A stretch of DNA of 64,000 nt from Thainema sp. (GCA_052168235.1 JBQLZK010000006.1:32001-96000); one strand, 5' to 3'. Shown: positions 1 to 6,835, counted from the first letter of the stretch. Notes: generated from the sequence alone by a model not told the origin. Numbers and translations are program-made.

Positions 1-1
1 A

Positions 2-271
2 TTCCCGTGCGATCGCACCTGTAGTTCGCAGTTGTTCCACTTCTTCGGCGCGAATTTCGGTATCAGTGGACAGCAGTAAAACCTGATGGCTGGCTTGGGG
101 AAAGTATCGCTCGACCAGATGATTACGATGTTCGGAGTCGAGCCGTCCCAGGGGCGTGTCGATGGCGACGGGCAGTTGCCGACCGGAAGCGCTAGCTAAT
201 CCCCAAAGAAGTGCGATCGCAAGGATCTGTTTTTCGCCAGCGGAAAGCCGATGTTTGGGTGGCCATGCGCC
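2..271 (-). pseudogene. dndD: C-terminal fragment of DNA sulfur-modification ATPase DndD; 5' part missing; runs off the window end
   Basis: My translation of the minus strand gives PKHRLSAGEKQILAIALLWGLASASGRQLPVAIDTPLGRLDSEHRNHLVERYFPQASHQVLLLSTDTEI, the ABC signature/Walker B region typical of DndD. The frame is closed upstream by TAA at 272-274 and has no in-frame ATG. Confidence 0.85.
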
Positions 272-601
272 TTACCCTTTTGGCAGGTATTTGACCAAGG
301 CTTTCATAACTTCTCCGGGTTGAAATTGCAGGGGACGATCGGCGTTGGGGGCGGAGAGGAAGTCTGTCCATTCGAAGGTTTCGGCAAAGCCGAGCTGGTG
401 GAGGGTGTTGATGATGGTGGTAATGGATTGTTTGGAGCCGATGACGAGGATTTTGACGGGTTCGCGATCGCGTTTGGGGTAGGAGTAGAGTTTGAGAGAA
501 ACGGAAAGAGAGACGGTTTCTGAGGAGTCGGATGAGTTGGAGAGGAAGGATTGGGTTTGCATAGTTGTCGCCTTAAAGTGTGGCATCAATTTGGATGCCA
601 A
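272..601 (-). CDS. Small cyanobacterial hypothetical protein, divergent from an XRE regulator
   Basis: 109-aa ORF; the REPVKILVIGS...LHQLGFAE..EW motif recalls a cyanobacterial family; true start uncertain. Confidence 0.65.
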   Translation of the reverse strand: MASKLMPHFKATTMQTQSFLSNSSDSSETVSLSVSLKLYSYPKRDREPVKILVIGSKQSITTIINTLHQLGFAETFEWTDFLSAPNADRPLQFQPGEVMKALVKYLPKG

Positions 602-678
602 TAATCATAGGCGTCAGTTCTGACTGCGTCAACCCTTTTGATGCCATTATATTTTTCATCCTCTGGAAAGATGGAGGC

Positions 679-912
679 ATGGGAAAAGCAGGAGCAGCAC
701 TCAAGCAGGTACTTGAGCAATATGAAATCAGTCAATATAGTCTTGCTGCGGTTCTTGATGTAGAACGCAACAACGTCTATCGATGGGTCAACGAAAAGCG
801 TGATCCATCTGGTGAAAGAATCGTTGAAATTGTTAGAGCACTAAAGTCTATGAATTCTGAAGCAGCAGAAACATTTGTTTCTTTATATTTAGGAGATGAA
901 CTCTTAGACTAA
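679..912 (+). CDS. XRE-family helix-turn-helix regulator
   Basis: MGKAGAALKQVLEQYEISQYSLAAVLDVERNNVYRWVNEKRDP is an HTH_3 pattern; ATG at 679 follows GGAGG. Confidence 0.85.
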   Translation: MGKAGAALKQVLEQYEISQYSLAAVLDVERNNVYRWVNEKRDPSGERIVEIVRALKSMNSEAAETFVSLYLGDELLD

Positions 913-1250
913 AACCGCAATCTACCTGTAGCAAGCATTCGATAACCCATTGCCATTGATGCAAACGAAACGAAGAATTGCCATAAACTAGTTGGATTTA
1001 ATACGGCTCGACTGCTAGCGAAGATCAAAACGATGCTGACTCCCACAAATATCCAACCATAGCTTTTGAGACTCATGGGCAACGCAACTAGCCATACAGT
1101 TCCGAGCACTAAGAGCAAGATGGAGAGATCAGCAGCAATTCCACGCCAAAAATAAGGATAAACATTCGTAGTAAAGAATATGTTTCGACCCAAAAAATAA
1201 ATTCCAAGCAGAATCAATGCAAAACCAATCAGTTGAATAAAGAATCTCAT
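909..1250 (-). CDS. Small multi-pass membrane protein
   Basis: 113 aa with about four hydrophobic segments. Confidence 0.75.
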   Translation of the reverse strand: MRFFIQLIGFALILLGIYFLGRNIFFTTNVYPYFWRGIAADLSILLLVLGTVWLVALPMSLKSYGWIFVGVSIVLIFASSRAVLNPTSLWQFFVSFASMAMGYRMLATGRLRF

Positions 1251-1289
1251 AACGCCACTTAACTCAAATAACTATTTTGGATTGAGGAA

Positions 1290-2249
1290 TCAAGCGATTT
1301 CCCATCGTTCTCTATGCCAACTCAGCGCTTCTAAACTGGGTCTAAATTTATCCTCAGTAGGTAACTCAATTTGCTCACCTTTGAAATCCATCATTCCTCG
1401 GCTTTCTATTGCTATTTCTTCTGTAAATCGATCTCTTGGAATAACTATACGATAATCATTGCTAATTCCAAACCAACCATGATCAAAAGCCCAATGATGA
1501 TTTTTGCAAAGCGCTAAACCATTAATAAAGCGATCATCTCTGAATTCCGAAAACGGCTTAATGTGTGCTCCATCAACAATATTCTGAGCATCAGAGCTAA
1601 TGATTTTTAAACGGCAAAATGCACAACGTTGATCATAGAGAGAAACTACGATTCTTCGAAACGCACCATTCCTCACAACAATGTTTTCTTCATTCTTTAG
1701 ATCTTTGATGCTATATGTCGCACCTCCTTCTTTTAAAAGCCGATTTTTAACGATTTCAAATTCATCTACAAGTGCAAGTTGCTCAATTTCGGAAGTTTGC
1801 TCAGAAAACCAAGTATCAATTAAAACCTTTAGCAAAAATATTCTTTGTTCAGGATTTTGCAAAAGAAAGAATAGCTCTGAATCAAAATAGGCGTGTTGAA
1901 CTGTTTTTCTGACTGCTGTAACTCCTTTACGGCCTAACTTAGTAGCTGATGTAGCTTCGCTGTCTGGATCTAGGTAAAGATGCCAAAATTTATCACCTGT
2001 TAAATGAACAAAAGGAAGTGATATATCAGAACGATGATCAGTTGTTACTAAGCTACGCCAATATTTTAGGAAGGTTGAAATTAGTTCAGGTGATAAAGGA
2101 ATTCTGTTCTTATAGATTTTTCCTTGTTCAATCAACTCAAGAACTGAAATAAGCAAAATAGGTTTATGTGGAGCGCTTCCTCGCTCTCGATTTCGGTTTA
2201 CATTGAGATTTGCGAACTTTCTCGCGTAGTAGTGCAAATCTTTTTTCAT
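1290..2249 (-). CDS. SBD-HNH endonuclease, putative phosphorothioate-dependent restriction enzyme
   Basis: N-terminal APHKPILLISVL and LPFVHL..DKFWHL (SBD-like); C-terminal CAFC...DGAHIKP...NGLALCKNHHWAFD (HNH). Confidence 0.85.
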   Translation of the reverse strand: MKKDLHYYARKFANLNVNRNRERGSAPHKPILLISVLELIEQGKIYKNRIPLSPELISTFLKYWRSLVTTDHRSDISLPFVHLTGDKFWHLYLDPDSEATSATKLGRKGVTAVRKTVQHAYFDSELFFLLQNPEQRIFLLKVLIDTWFSEQTSEIEQLALVDEFEIVKNRLLKEGGATYSIKDLKNEENIVVRNGAFRRIVVSLYDQRCAFCRLKIISSDAQNIVDGAHIKPFSEFRDDRFINGLALCKNHHWAFDHGWFGISNDYRIVIPRDRFTEEIAIESRGMMDFKGEQIELPTEDKFRPSLEALSWHRERWEIA

Positions 2250-2267
2250 AAATGTAAACCAGACTAA

Positions 2268-2831
2268 CTATGCTTCATCAAGTTTTCTCATGTACGTGCT
2301 GTACATTTTCATAAAGTACCCCGGTGGCTCTTGAAAACTATCAGTCTGTGAAATTTGTTTAACTTGATCCAGTTTACCTGGAAACCATCGACCGACTAGA
2401 ACCGCCCGTAAACTATCACGCAAAGATTGTTCTTGTAAAAAATCAAACAAGTCCTCATCTAAGTAAGCATGGCTAATTGCACGTTTCACCTCTGCCAGAG
2501 TCTTTAACTTTATCTTTTTAGCTAAAACTTTCTCAAAACCTGGATTGGCGTATAAGTGCCAAAATTTACCGCTTTTCATATGGAAAAACGGTCGTGAGAT
2601 ATCGGGATAATGACTAGCCGATCCTAAATAGCTCCAATACTTTAAAAACGTTCGATTGATTTGTCTAGATAATTCAATTCGATTCTCATGAATTACTTCG
2701 CGTTCAAAGAGTTCAATAACTGAAAGCAATAGAATTGGCTTGTGAGGCGCAACGCCATGAGCACGATCTACCCGTATCCTCTCAAATTTCTTTGAGTAAT
2801 ATGCAAGAAGCTTAATTCTTTCTAAATCCAC
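2268..2831 (-). CDS. Stand-alone SBD-like protein with no nuclease domain
   Basis: APHKPILLLSVIEL, TFLKYW, RPFFHMKSGKFWHL and HAYLDEDLF parallel the N-terminus of the downstream gene; no HNH motif; GTG start. Confidence 0.8.
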   Translation of the reverse strand: MDLERIKLLAYYSKKFERIRVDRAHGVAPHKPILLLSVIELFEREVIHENRIELSRQINRTFLKYWSYLGSASHYPDISRPFFHMKSGKFWHLYANPGFEKVLAKKIKLKTLAEVKRAISHAYLDEDLFDFLQEQSLRDSLRAVLVGRWFPGKLDQVKQISQTDSFQEPPGYFMKMYSTYMRKLDEA

Positions 2832-2895
2832 TTGCTTTAAGTTTAGTGGCTTGTACTACAGAATGAATGATAGACGAAAGATTTCTCTCATGAGA

Positions 2896-3153
2896 CTAAT
2901 CTGATCTTTTATCATCTAGCATCTCTCTCTTAATTTCTTGTATCAAGTCTATAATCTGTTGCCGAGTTTCGTATCCTTCTGCAACTAAAGACTCCTTTAA
3001 TTCTTGTTGAATCTGTTCTACAGAACTCAGCGGTTCACGCAAAGCTGTTTTTCCTAAATACCCAAGCCTCAACATATCTTCTAGATATACTACGAACTCT
3101 CGATCTCCAGAGACTACTTTAATATTGCAGAGATAAAGCCCATTATCATTCAT
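2896..3153 (-). pseudogene. Chimeric ORF: HepT/DUF86-like N-terminal stub joined to unrelated sequence
   Basis: Start overlaps the MNT stop (ATGA); MNDNGLYLCNIK resembles HepT N-termini; no R-x4-H HEPN motif follows. Confidence 0.5.
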
Positions 3154-3476
3154 AGCGGTATCGCATCCTGCATCACCCGATCCTTAATCCGCTCGTGCAG
3201 AGCCGATGGAGTCGCCACATCCACCGATCTCCCCAATAAATCCTCCAGATCCTGTATTAGGCCAATGTGGTCAAGCAAACTGCGCCCCGGCTCCAGGTCT
3301 ACTAACAAATCAATATCACTCTGCTCATTCGCTTCTCCTCGCACTACCGAGCCAAATACCCGAATATTAGATGCTCCATGTTGTGCGGCAATAGAGACAA
3401 GATCTGCCTTTTGCGCTCTTAATCGAGCCAGTAGATCATTCACCCTAGAAGCCTCTAGATTGGAGTCTTGCATCAC
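3150..3476 (-). CDS. mntA: Minimal nucleotidyltransferase (MntA-type antitoxin)
   Basis: FGSVVRGEANEQSDIDLLVD gives GS-x10-DxD; C-terminal LEDLLGRSVDV. Confidence 0.9.
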   Translation of the reverse strand: MMQDSNLEASRVNDLLARLRAQKADLVSIAAQHGASNIRVFGSVVRGEANEQSDIDLLVDLEPGRSLLDHIGLIQDLEDLLGRSVDVATPSALHERIKDRVMQDAIPL

Positions 3477-3506
3477 ATCACCTCCAAAACCTCAGTCCAC
3501 TCAAAC

Positions 3507-3569
3507 TCATTTACACTCTGCCGCACCAGCTTGATCAACGAAACCTACTTCTTTTACAAATGTTGCCAA
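3507..3569 (-). pseudogene. Possible stub of a PemK/MazF-like toxin
   Basis: TTG start with GAGGAGG upstream overlaps the DUF2281 3' end; (M)ATFVK resembles the start of the usual partner toxin, then the frame diverges and stops after 20 aa. Confidence 0.4.
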
Positions 3570-3748
3570 GCCTCCTCCTCGTCAGGTAACAACCAGTCCT
3601 TATTTAAGGCAGACTCACTCAATAAAGCAGTTTCAAACTTCTCCTGTGCCTGAGTCATATTCAAAAACTGAATAAACGACAATACTGTTGTCAAAACATC
3701 TTCAGGAGCTTTTTCTAACTCCTGCAAAATTAAATCTTTAATCGTCAC
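3554..3748 (-). CDS. DUF2281-like putative antitoxin
   Basis: ILQELEKAPEDVLTTVLSFIQFL...ALLSESALNKDWLLPDEEEAWQHL. Confidence 0.8.
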   Translation of the reverse strand: MTIKDLILQELEKAPEDVLTTVLSFIQFLNMTQAQEKFETALLSESALNKDWLLPDEEEAWQHL

Positions 3749-3759
3749 TTCTCAACTTC

Positions 3760-5493
3760 CTACATCGCAGTATAAGTATTCACCCGATACCCTAGTTCAC
3801 TCCCTAACAGCCGCGTCACTGCTTCTAGCTGCCGCAACGTTTCTTGCGTGACCCCATCCTCAACTGATCCATCACCGCAGTAAAACAGCGTATGATCCGT
3901 ATTCAACCGATTTTTCATCAAAGCTCGTAAGGCTGGAATCTTATTCTCCGCAGTACCAATCAGCCGAGCCCGCTTAGAAAGCAACAAGGTCAGGTTCTCA
4001 TTATCTTCATCATCACCACCAATTGCGATCGCACGGCCAATCTTGACTGATAAATCGGCATACTCCAGCACCTCGTCATCCGTCAGTTCCACCAAAATCG
4101 GGTAGTAGCGATAATGCACCAGCGCCCCCTGTTCAATGGCATTCCGTAGGGTAAACTCCGGCTCCAGTACCTCGCCAAAATAGTCAAACAGCGCCTGGGT
4201 GCCCCGATCATCAAAATACCGCTCCGGTGTCGCCGACAGTCCTAATCTCAACCCCACTGTCTTTGGCAAACTGGCCGCCAATCGTTGCGCTCCTAAGTTA
4301 TGCGCCTCATCCCCAATCAACAGCGTCTTCTTGGGAAACGAACCAAGCTGCGACTGAAAGCCCTGACTAGTCAGCGTCGCATTCGTTGTAATCACCGTGA
4401 CAAACGGCTGCAGTTCTAATTTCAGGTTAAGCAACTGATTCGACAGATTGCTCTGCCACTGCTTCAAACTCTCATAGGCCAAAATTGGCTCTAGCCCAAA
4501 CTTCCGGCACTCCCGATCCCACTGCTGCACTAAGTGACGGTAAGGACACACTACAATCAGCGCTTGCAGCTCAATTTTCTCGTATAGCTCTGCGGCAACA
4601 GCCAAAGCGGTAATTGTCTTTCCGCTTCCTGTTGCCATTTTCAGTGTGCCGCGCCCATTATTTGCAAACCAATTCTCCACCGCCTGCTTTTGGTAATCCC
4701 GTAGATTGAGCCAGAATGGTTTAATTGGGATTCCTTGAAGTTTGGTGGCTACTTCATCAGGAAAATCTAATTCATAATCTCCTTTAGTACTAGCAGCATA
4801 AGGCTCTCGCGTCGGTGGTTTATCAGGGCAGTACTTTTGGATCAGAGATCGCGTTACCGCCTCCGGAAACGGCATCACATCAACCTTGGGCGTGCGATTC
4901 TGCCACAACTCCTCAAATGCCTCTGCTCGCATACGTGCCCATTCGTCAAGTCCGGGTTGCCAAGACGCACAAACCTCTAATACCTCAAAATTATGCTGTA
5001 AGCCATTTTCACTTTCATTGGCTGAGCCGTTGAAAGTTACTAAATTCCCCTCATCATCAGCAAAGATACCCAGCTTTTCGTGATAGATGCCCCGTAACGC
5101 TTCAGGTACAGCTAACTTGATCTCTAGATTTCCCCGCGCCAGCAACCAAGTCAGAGCTGCGAATCGCTGTTTCACAAAATCGGGCATATCCTCTTGATCA
5201 AAGCTTCTCAGCAATGCCCGATTAATCACCTCATCTCGCTGCTGGAGACCCTGCTGAATTGCTTCCACATCCGCTTCAGACAATTGTGGTGATGTCACCA
5301 ACCGCATCCGCCCACCCGACTGAATAAATGCTGTTAATCCCCTCGCCACCAGTGCCAGCACCGAGCTCGAAAAGTATCCCACCGCACGGTTGTAGACGGT
5401 TGCCTGCTTCAAACAAGGAATATAGAAATCCTCAACTAAGTTGGACTCACTACTGCGATATCTCTTGCGAAGGTTTAGCGCTTTCAGATTCAA
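3760..5493 (-). pseudogene. PLD-nuclease/SF2 DEAH helicase of the dnd-associated restriction enzyme type, C-terminally truncated
   Basis: HEKLGIFAD...NGSANES (PLD), MATGSGKT, DEAH and LSATPER are present; the ORF ends at GYRVNTYTAM before helicase motifs V and VI. Confidence 0.8.
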
Positions 5494-5635
5494 GTTAGAA
5501 CCTCAAATCCATACTTCCCCTAGGATAAATGCACTAATCATCTCTTAACCCTGAAATATAAAGCAATTGTCACAAAGCTACTATCTGCATTTTGGTCAAA
5601 CCTATAGCCTCGCGGCGTGAAGCATTAACAGCATG

Positions 5636-6835
5636 TCACAGAGCACTTCGTTCTGGACTGGTTGGGGTCTTTGGCTGAATTGGGTTTTGTTGCTCCAGCA
5701 TCAAGGCAAGCTGCTTTTGAAACTGCGCCAAGCCAAACTTGCTGATTGCCCGGTTTCTCAATTTCATCTTCTGAGCATGGCTGTTTAAACAGTTGCGATC
5801 GCACAAAATATCAATCAGCGTTTGAGCAATCTCTAACTCATCATCCGGGTTAACTAAATAGCCCATCGTGCCGTGTTCCAGTGGATCAACAGCTCCATCA
5901 CAATTTCCGGCTAGCACTGGCTTACCACACGCCAAAGCCTCTAAATAAACAATGCCAAAGCCCTCGCCTTTACTGGGTAGGGCAAACACATCGCATAAAT
6001 TATAGTGATCGCACAACTCCTGATCTGGAATAAAGCCAGTCAACGTCACAGCGTCCTCCAGACCAAGCTGATCAATCAACTGCTGGATGCGCGGCGTATC
6101 ATCCCCTTTGCCCGCCAAAATATAATGCACATCGGGAATCTGCTGACGAATGATCGGTAACGCCCGCAGAATTTGGTCATACCCCTTATACGTATCGAGC
6201 TTGCCCAAGCGGCTGACCGTGAAAATCACAGGCTGCTGTGGCTGCAATCCATAGCGCTTTAGCAAATAGTCAGGCTTCGGCCCAATTTGAAACTGTTGCG
6301 GATCGAGCGTATTCGGCAGGACAACAACCTGTTCAGCCCGCAAATCTTGTTCGTGCAAAATGCGATCGCGGGTAAAATGGCTGACGGCAACAACCTGATC
6401 GGCCTGCTGGAGTGCTTTTCGCAAGTGAGTCCGCTGCAAATCCCAAACCTCCAGCCCGTGAGCAATCACCCAGTAGGGAACCCCAGAAATCTGCTTCAGC
6501 CACTGGCAGACAGGACTGTAGTTGACATGAGAAGCGATGATCAGCGAAGGCTGAGCCTGAACCCCCCGTTGCAGCGTTCGGCCCGCCATCAGCACCGTTT
6601 GCACAATCCGGGGATGATCGCCTAAACAATGAAATCGGGTTTGCGGTAGTAAACCAAATCGATCATGGATATGATCCAGCCGATCGTATTTGAGAAATAA
6701 GTCATACTCAGCGTCTGGGTAAAGCTGCTGGAGCGTTTTCAGCAGAAAAATAGAGTAGACCTGAATTCCACCTTTGAAGCCAAAAATATTAGGAAGCAGT
6801 AAGAAAAAATGGGCCGTTTCATCTAAATTACTCAT
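5636..6835 (-). CDS. Glycosyltransferase family 4
   Basis: GGIQVY, HGLEVW, KGYD, EGFGIVYLEALACGKPV. Confidence 0.93.
   Translation of the reverse strand: MSNLDETAHFFLLLPNIFGFKGGIQVYSIFLLKTLQQLYPDAEYDLFLKYDRLDHIHDRFGLLPQTRFHCLGDHPRIVQTVLMAGRTLQRGVQAQPSLIIASHVNYSPVCQWLKQISGVPYWVIAHGLEVWDLQRTHLRKALQQADQVVAVSHFTRDRILHEQDLRAEQVVVLPNTLDPQQFQIGPKPDYLLKRYGLQPQQPVIFTVSRLGKLDTYKGYDQILRALPIIRQQIPDVHYILAGKGDDTPRIQQLIDQLGLEDAVTLTGFIPDQELCDHYNLCDVFALPSKGEGFGIVYLEALACGKPVLAGNCDGAVDPLEHGTMGYLVNPDDELEIAQTLIDILCDRNCLNSHAQKMKLRNRAISKFGLAQFQKQLALMLEQQNPIQPKTPTSPERSAL

Follow-up and report, generated by a model that had tools for sequence, protein, structure and literature searches.

Results

The DNA analyzed here is a 64,000-nucleotide stretch of a draft genome of the cyanobacterium Thainema sp. 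(G000:C6:32001-96000; 205 contigs, completeness 99.99%), called the window throughout. Its left end carries the remains of two systems linked to phosphorothioate (PT) DNA, a truncated gene for the PLD-helicase PbeA and the last codons of dndD, and between these two stumps lie genes for a nuclease with a sulfur-binding domain (SBD) and an HNH domain (SBD-HNH), an SBD-only paralogue, and several small proteins (Table 1). Farther left, outside the window, follow a PD-(D/E)XK gene, which sits between the dndD remnant and dndE, an intact DndE (PF08870, E 2.8e-43, 147 bits), two Uma2 genes, a convergent gene for a 404-amino-acid DndC-like paralogue, and a gene matching TIGR04096, "dnd-associated putative methyltransferase" (841 bits). 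We conclude that positions 1-5493 and about 8 kb to their left are most probably an eroded composite PT defence island of a kind that recurs in this cyanobacterial family. A reading made earlier from the sequence alone (the original prediction) had instead proposed a dnd modification locus gutted at both ends and replaced by PT-targeting genes. It rightly stated that no dndB or dndC lies between the stumps, as Pfam and PADLOC profile searches found neither there.

Table 1. Features at the left end of the window, numbered from its first nucleotide
Feature	Position	Strand	Match or remark
dndD C-terminal remnant	1..271, last 59 nucleotides left of the window at C6:31942-32000	-	TIGR03185 positions 548-650
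orf109, small cyanobacteria-only protein	272..601; likely true start ATG at 559	-	
Cro/C1-type helix-turn-helix (HTH) protein, divergent from orf109	679..912	+	Pfam HTH_3 1.4e-07
memb113, hydrophobic small protein, 113 amino acids	909..1250	-	
SBD-HNH nuclease, 319 amino acids	1290..2249	-	N-terminal SBD, C-terminal HNH_2
SBD-only paralogue, 187 amino acids	2268..2831	-	directly upstream of SBD-HNH
p85, small protein	2896..3153	-	no family match (Pfam, PADLOC, NCBIfam)
MntA-like nucleotidyltransferase, 108 amino acids, toxin-antitoxin-like	3150..3476	-	Pfam NTP_transf_2 2.2e-15
p64, DUF2281-like small protein	3554..3748	-	Pfam, weak, 20.6 bits
Right deletion junction	3749..3763	-	PbeA homology stops after Ala576
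Truncated pbeA, PLD-helicase, 577 amino acids	3760..5493	-	PADLOC PbeA 7e-197

The abrupt end of the helicase (NTYTAM*) was confirmed. The PbeA homologues of 13 relatives, like the second copy of the window genome, are open frames of 708-750 amino acids; in the alignment the window copy stops within the conserved YTAE, between A and E, and some 130 residues are missing from it, among them RCLDEGVDIP and QFIQRRGRILR, which we take to be helicase motifs V and VI. Its PADLOC match spans profile positions 1-569 of 682, and Pfam detects PLDc_2 (1.7e-07, residues 50-197) and ResIII. The HEKLG...GSANES stretch of the HKD/PLD domain is invariant in the PbeA alignment, and the window copy keeps this nuclease domain and helicase motifs I-III, with an incomplete second RecA lobe. 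After Ala576 come ATG TAG, 12 nucleotides, and the GTG start of p64. The protein is very probably dead as a helicase; the truncation may be recent, or a role as a nuclease may persist.

PbeABCD has been described as four proteins: PbeA, an HKD nuclease-SF2 helicase; the small PbeB; PbeC, an ABC ATPase of the CxC type; and PbeD, a cognate of DndE (PMC10853773). Together they form a PT-dependent antiviral module beside dndCDEA (PMC6459918, Xiong et al. 2019). The helicase is therefore a gene of a defence module and not of the dnd writer, so that, of the proposal of a single dnd locus gutted at both ends, the truncation of both genes stands but the damage fell on two modules. No pbeB, pbeC, or pbeD was found at the window locus by Pfam, PADLOC, or comparison with relatives, and searching the whole genome (tblastn) for the parts missing from the island matched only a second PbeABCD on contig C3. 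In this second set (G000:C3:122563-134791, L022) all four genes are present without dnd genes nearby; about 5.5 kb of unrelated open reading frames (ORFs; Uma2, TPR, and others) separate its pbeA from pbeB, and its pbeC and pbeD flank a Uma2 gene.

At the other end, the minus-strand frame that reads leftwards from position 271 (GAWPPKHRLSAGEKQ...) starts at PKHRLSAGEKQ and runs off the window, its 110 codons reaching the last of the 650 positions of TIGR03185. As the original prediction had noted, it lacks a start codon, and we found no ATG, GTG, or TTG that could serve as one in the window or in the congener G001. The remnant keeps the ABC signature LSAGEKQ, the Walker B/D-loop, and the H-loop region, and has neither Walker A nor coiled coil. 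We considered a PbeC fragment and rejected it: the remnant shows 74-76% identity with the C-terminal part of DndD in G003 and G070, against about 27% with PbeC, and the DndE that follows it is 91% identical to that of G003. It lies in frame with orf109 across a single TAA (272-274).

What stood here before can be read from relatives. A search of 101 related genomes found PbeA in 32, SBD-HNH in 35, and a full DndD in 20, and the loci were then retrieved. The fullest version, in G115, contains PbeA, PbeB, PbeC, p64 (78% identity to the window copy), p85 (48%), PbeD, SBD-HNH (56%), HTH, orf104, DndC (full, 544 amino acids), DndD, DndE, the DndC-like paralogue, and the methyltransferase-like gene. 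G003 has, on one strand, PbeA (706 amino acids), PbeB, PbeC, PbeD, SBD, SBD-HNH, HTH (opposite strand), orf104, a 127-amino-acid C-terminal stub of DndC, p313, DndD (656 amino acids), and DndE, toward which a DndC-like paralogue converges. G046 and G116 carry an MntA-like gene between pbeC and pbeD. The ancestral order on one strand would thus be pbeA, pbeB, pbeC, small toxin-antitoxin-like genes (p64, p85, MntA-like), pbeD, SBD and/or SBD-HNH, HTH (opposite strand), orf109, dndC, a variable gene, dndD, and dndE, ending with the convergent DndC-like paralogue and the TIGR04096 gene. In G003 (L027 11908-15198), the near-complete island lies directly downstream of TnsB, TnsC, and TniQ genes that match models of type V-K CRISPR-associated transposons, and may travel as transposon cargo.

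These relatives bear directly on the idea that a foreign, AT-rich 3.5-kb block with PT-targeting nucleases was inserted into a dnd locus and selected, by its toxicity, for loss of the writer. Frequent HIP1 sites are a mark of a cyanobacterium, and this motif (GCGATCGC) occurs 77 times in the window and 1.19 times per kb genome-wide. Sites at 9, 213, 464, and 4025 leave none within 465-4024, in agreement with the HIP1-free stretch originally reported between about 472 and 4024, and GC content is 35-40% across about 600-3200. An AT-rich, HIP1-free block between two truncated genes is what an insertion would leave. At 3561 bp, this gap exceeds all others in the window, but gaps of 3253 and 3236 bp are also present, and about one gap of that length is expected among 77 sites at the genome-wide density, so the gap by itself is within chance. 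The AT-richness is shared by the orthologues: in G003 and G060, SBD/SBD-HNH have 36-39% GC and pbeD 40-42%, against 55-58% for PbeA, PbeC, and DndD. We therefore rejected HIP1 depletion as a sign of foreign origin, and the argument from composition falls. Moreover, p64, MntA-like, p85, SBD, SBD-HNH, HTH, and orf109 keep the same order in relatives with intact PbeABCD and/or DndD-DndE (G003, G060, G115, G116, G027, G046), and of the genes between the stumps only memb113 lacks such a syntenic counterpart. Judged from this synteny, the SBD and SBD-HNH genes are original parts of the island and not newcomers.

Deletions rather than an insertion most probably explain the present state. Measured against the archetype, one took pbeA from codon 578 to its end together with pbeB and pbeC; a second, between p85 and the SBD gene, took pbeD; and a third, with its junction at the orf109 TAA, took dndC, the variable gene that follows, and roughly the first 546 codons of dndD. 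The complete PbeABCD on contig C3 may have made loss of the Pbe genes tolerable. Over the stretch that starts with the Uma2 genes and includes the SBD gene, the window genome and G001 align collinearly with about 92% identity, and they have the same orf109-TAA-dndD junction. This deletion is therefore older than the divergence of the two species and, G001 having been assembled independently, no assembly artefact. At the other end, all that G001 retains is roughly the first 66 residues of PbeA, and p64; it has no MntA-like gene and no p85, and the junction differs.

Public data support the right-hand junction as well: a 175-nucleotide contig (record 22) of metagenome run X4, 95% alike, spans 3662-3836 and includes the junction at 3760, so that both breakpoints are real. 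Among the contigs listed from four runs, which are short and of low depth, none bridges 271. At most 0.23 of the words sampled from window positions 1-6000 occurred in any one public run, and no RNA run was listed among those containing them. The island intergenic segments of the window genome and G001 (C6:25249-34924) are 97-99% identical, and synonymous sites of the genes around them differ by 0.13-0.48 substitutions per site, making non-coding island DNA far more conserved than silent coding positions.

No canonical PT writer was found in the draft genome, as far as the sequence can tell. The best DndC match scores 143.9 bits (TIGR03183 cut-off 290.4; positions 14-358 of 447) and belongs to the DndC-like paralogue, which lacks the C-terminal ~90 profile positions and is 26-29% identical to operonic DndC; the genuine DndC of G027 scores 676.9 bits, and full-length DndC genes of 530-562 amino acids occur in G027, G046, G064, and G019. 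Neither a full DndD (the remnant reaches 170 bits, cut-off 245.85) nor a DndB was found, and the sole SspD-like match among ssp markers is again the DndC-like paralogue. DUF4007 (PF13182), taken as a marker of SspB, had no match, but the control matched in no genome either, making this blank uninformative. The end state that had been predicted, a PT-reading nuclease without a canonical writer, thus agrees with our searches. Small DndC C-terminal ORFs in G003, G060, G070, and G005 were considered as halves of a dndC split by inversion; this was rejected, as the full-length genes mark them as deletion stubs and the convergent 404-amino-acid gene as a separate paralogue.

The PT-targeting identity proposed for the genes between the stumps is supported for two of them. 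SBD-HNH residues 6-147 match SBDHga (PDB 8h0l; E 4.5e-21, phmmer), and the residues aligned to its H25, K26, L75, P76, and H79, described as the sulfur pocket in the accessible text of PMC10602919, are H, K, L, P, and H. The C-terminus matches HNH_2 (Pfam, 6.7e-10), and the HNH region DGAHIKPF...NGLALCKNHHWAFD is conserved across nine homologues. Against NF045808 the protein aligns over its full length (positions 5-280 of 284) with 113.2 bits, below the cut-off of 180. We predict a PT-DNA-dependent restriction endonuclease. The SBD-only protein is 43-44% identical to the N-terminal half of SBD-HNH and 63% to the G003 protein SBD190. Both genes have a ratio of nonsynonymous to synonymous substitutions (dN/dS) of 0.08 against G001 and are therefore maintained. 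An SBD-only gene directly upstream of SBD-HNH is also found in G001, G003, G005, G007, G033, G060, L052, L061, and L074. Such recurrent pairing suggests that the two proteins act together; the portions of the PT literature consulted contained no description of such a pair. The pair would bind PT-DNA through the conserved sulfur pocket and cut it through the HNH domain and, with no canonical writer found and the host DNA presumably free of PT, would act as a type IV-style restriction system against PT-marked incoming DNA.

Among the small genes, memb113 is an extra relative to the archetype of G003 and G115; it is present in G001 (98%) and G005 (66%), and its dN/dS is 0.03 against G001. The HTH gene is conserved at the same position in relatives, its product is 71% identical to a 75-amino-acid G003 homologue (16679-16903 of L001), and it probably encodes the island regulator. 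For orf109 there was no match in Pfam, PADLOC, or NCBIfam; its nearest Atlas clusters are unnamed cyanobacterial hypothetical proteins, and its homologue precedes dndC in intact relatives. The MntA-like gene scores 46.1 bits against NF047752 (cut-off 60), and p85, which overlaps it downstream, has no match to HEPN or another family in the profile sets searched (Table 1). Homologues of p85 (47-48% identity) lie between pbeC and pbeD in G115 and G116, and those of p64 just downstream of pbeC in G027 and G115 (61% and 78% identity).

Whether the nuclease could have driven the loss of the writer depends on how often the two are found together. PMC7461809 expects SBD-HNH and dnd clusters of matching specificity to exclude one another and reports fewer than 3.6% near dnd genes, which favors the insertion idea; it also proposes that mutated dnd clusters or different specificities might account for co-occurrence. 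An alternative proposal, in PMC10853773, is that these nucleases carry out restriction together with the writer. We found uninterrupted SBD-HNH, DndC (534-562 amino acids), DndD (653-678 amino acids), and DndE together in five species (G064, L061, L083, L089, L095). The homologues beside intact dndCDE are 41-59% identical to the window copy, the one in L061 (59%) keeping all pocket and HNH residues. L061 and G064 retain the His/Lys of the sulfur cavity, L083 and L089 have other residues there, and the HNH residues are conserved throughout these four; the L095 copy, which runs into the edge of its locus, was left out of the residue alignment. In L089 (447-6763), the dndBCDE operon is canonical and uninterrupted apart from the SBD-HNH gene lodged between its dndB and dndC. 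Three further genomes (G019, G116, G121) combine an intact dndCDE island with an intact SBD-HNH elsewhere (55-75% identical to that of the window). The original prediction, that a toxic PT-cutter may have selected for writer loss, had itself named routine carriage of this SBD-HNH next to an intact dnd as its refutation, and by that measure it fails. Together with the synteny and composition of the block, and with a helicase that belongs to PbeABCD rather than to the writer, this coexistence leaves replacement by a foreign block very improbable, even though no canonical writer was found in the genome.

A different form of conflict deserves more weight. SBD-HNH could be ancestral and its combination with a writer unstable, so that the writer was inactivated repeatedly, which is compatible with deletional erosion of the island. 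We gathered 80 species-level loci with the dndD remnant as query. Within their flanks SBD-HNH was found in 16, of which 4 have uninterrupted DndC and DndD (L061, L083, L089, L095), counts obtained through the very genes being counted, among relatives that are not independent, with 6-kb flanks that can hide an SBD-HNH farther upstream of an intact operon and with 11 loci lacking a DndC match left out. In a fifth locus, L064, the DndC ORF lacks its first ~60 residues in frame, and in the other 11 DndC is absent or a stub and/or DndD is truncated. An early count of 1 intact writer in 17 SBD-HNH islands was discarded as a sampling artefact of close relatives, as the 80 loci revealed. In a family sample of 123 genomes, DndC exceeded the cut-off in 9 and was full-length in 7, and an SBD-HNH match was present in 5 of these 7 compared with 42 of the 123 overall.

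Among closer relatives, nine loci have a broken dndC and/or dndD next to SBD(-HNH) (G003, G005, G007, G033, G060, G070, G100, G115, G116-C2), through lesions as different as a DndC stub, a frameshifted DndD, a TAG stop, an insertion sequence (IS)-like insertion, and internal deletions, whereas islands without a nuclease in cis retain uninterrupted DndC, DndD, and DndE (G027, G046, G121-C32, G019-C21, G116-C4). In G115 (L041 6201-6965), an ORF of 254 amino acids with a CxxC zinc-finger-like N-terminus, presumably IS-like, breaks dndD at around residue 614; with the rest of the island complete, the inactivation looks recent. The few intact writers beside SBD-HNH, the differing lesions, and the intact islands without the nuclease are what a conflict would produce. 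Against it, five species keep nuclease and writer in cis and three in trans, where toxicity would act as well; the sample is biased by the query genes and by kinship, and several stubs may stem from one event; and survivorship fits equally, since after the death of the writer only a PT-dependent nuclease would be both harmless and useful. A conflict of this kind is possible but doubtful, and we offer unstable coexistence of writer and SBD-HNH as a secondary hypothesis, not a finding.

The dndD remnant itself evolves like coding sequence. Of the 21 nucleotides at which it differs from G001, 16 are third codon positions (binomial p 7e-5), and there are 4 amino-acid changes in 105 codons and a dN/dS of 0.08, so that changes are both codon-patterned and more numerous than in the intergenic DNA of the island. 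The first four codons after the TAA are fully diverged (GAWP in the window genome, GKLL in G001). DndE (0.02), the DndC-like paralogue (0.01), and the methyltransferase-like gene (0.09) also have low dN/dS values against G001 and are under purifying selection. Of the 80 loci, 64 match DndD from residue 30 or earlier, 11 are partial at contig or locus edges, and 5 are truncated internally. Across seven lineages, independent internal truncations leave a C-terminal part that begins at about residue 494 (L074), 501 (G100), 534 (L076), 545 (L098), 547 (this genus), 550 (L073), and 563 (G033), and all keep the last 94-163 codons of dndD. In G100 (L034 6882-7529), an in-frame deletion joins residues 1-61, the Walker A region, to 501-656, giving a 218-codon frame for an ABC head without coiled coil. 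Short predicted proteins that start with their own Met at the PKHRLSAGEKQ boundary exist in other cyanobacteria (P0030, P0035, P0004). Between L073 and G033, 24 of 30 substitutions are at third positions and the junctions differ, and these two truncations are possibly separate and recent.

These patterns could mean that the last ~95-110 codons of dndD are a translated minigene for the C-terminal ABC lobe, retained along with DndE, the DndC-like paralogue, and the TIGR04096 protein after loss of the writer and recurrently spared by selection; in the absence of a start codon, expression might come from read-through of, or coupling to, orf109. Among the 66 tRNAs of the genome no ochre suppressor for that TAA was found; the only suppressor-like tRNA has the amber anticodon CTA (labeled "Pyl" by ARAGORN) and is encoded at G000:C38:26305-26377 (-). 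Codon-patterned variation imported by recombination with intact alleles, or chance, remain as alternatives, and we advance the minigene tentatively, as an unlikely though conceivable outcome.

A bolder version would make the dndD C-lobe, DndE, DndC-like, and TIGR04096 proteins a reduced but working DNA-marking module whose mark the SBD/SBD-HNH pair works with. The low dN/dS of all four genes (0.01-0.09), the third-position bias of the remnant, the independent truncations that spare the end of dndD, and the Met-started short ORFs elsewhere speak for it. They are set against the missing start codon, a DndC-like protein far below the DndC cut-off and without its C-terminal profile positions, the possible import of variation by recombination, and the second pair, L073 and G033, whose truncations have different junctions and are perhaps separate and recent. 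In addition, a C-terminal ABC lobe without Walker A cannot bind ATP alone. We consider a remodelled module of this kind distinctly unlikely.

Discussion

Taken together, gene identities, synteny, the two junctions, and the missing parts fit a composite Pbe/Dnd island that lost genes by deletion and kept its PT-reading nuclease, with no canonical PT writer found. Several points weigh against this reading. The pbeA junction of G001 is different, which leaves room for more than one order of deletions and more than one ancestral state at that end; pbeA is still an open frame of 577 codons, which is unexpected for long-dead DNA; and the NF045808 and MntA models score below their curated cut-offs. 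The strong constraint on the DndC-like, DndE, dndD remnant, and methyltransferase-like sequences suggests that some DNA modification may continue. That no writer is present is not proven, and one could lie on unassembled DNA in a draft of 205 contigs despite its high completeness.

A switch from writer to restrictor by replacement would, if true, be a striking case of conflict between defence systems, but the evidence points instead to a composite island of a familiar type that decayed through ordinary deletions. SBD-HNH is a standard part of Pbe/Dnd islands here, even inside an intact dndBCDE operon, which is hard to square with enzymes that only attack PT-DNA and raises the question of whether it is the restriction arm of the neighboring writer. 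In addition, writers beside SBD-HNH are often broken, by many different lesions, and the C-terminal lobe of dndD has survived repeated truncations and, although it lacks a start codon here, changes in the manner of a coding sequence.

Compared with the PbeABCD (CxC-ABC ATPase-DndE) system described in PMC6459918 and re-annotated in PMC10853773, the window helicase has the same HKD/PLD and SF2 architecture, and relatives carry the full cassette in the published order next to dnd; tandem placement of PbeABCD and dnd is reported for 936 bacterial taxa in the published survey. The window copy differs in that only the first 577 residues of PbeA are left, pbeB, pbeC, and pbeD are gone, and a complete paralogous set lies on contig C3. 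With canonical DndBCDE it shares an intact DndE and a true DndD C-terminus, and it differs in lacking a DndC equivalog, DndB, and both the N-terminus and the coiled coil of DndD, and in having a PD-(D/E)XK gene before dndE. Like the SBD-HNH PT-dependent endonucleases ScoMcrA, SprMcrA, and EcoWI, and like SBDHga, the window nuclease has an SBD with the five pocket residues and an HNH_2 domain with the catalytic His/Asn/His region kept; unlike the three endonucleases, it has no SRA domain and is accompanied by an SBD-only paralogue. Finally, the SBD-HNH genes of these cyanobacteria are embedded in Pbe/Dnd islands, compared with the coupling of less than 3.6% given in PMC7461809.

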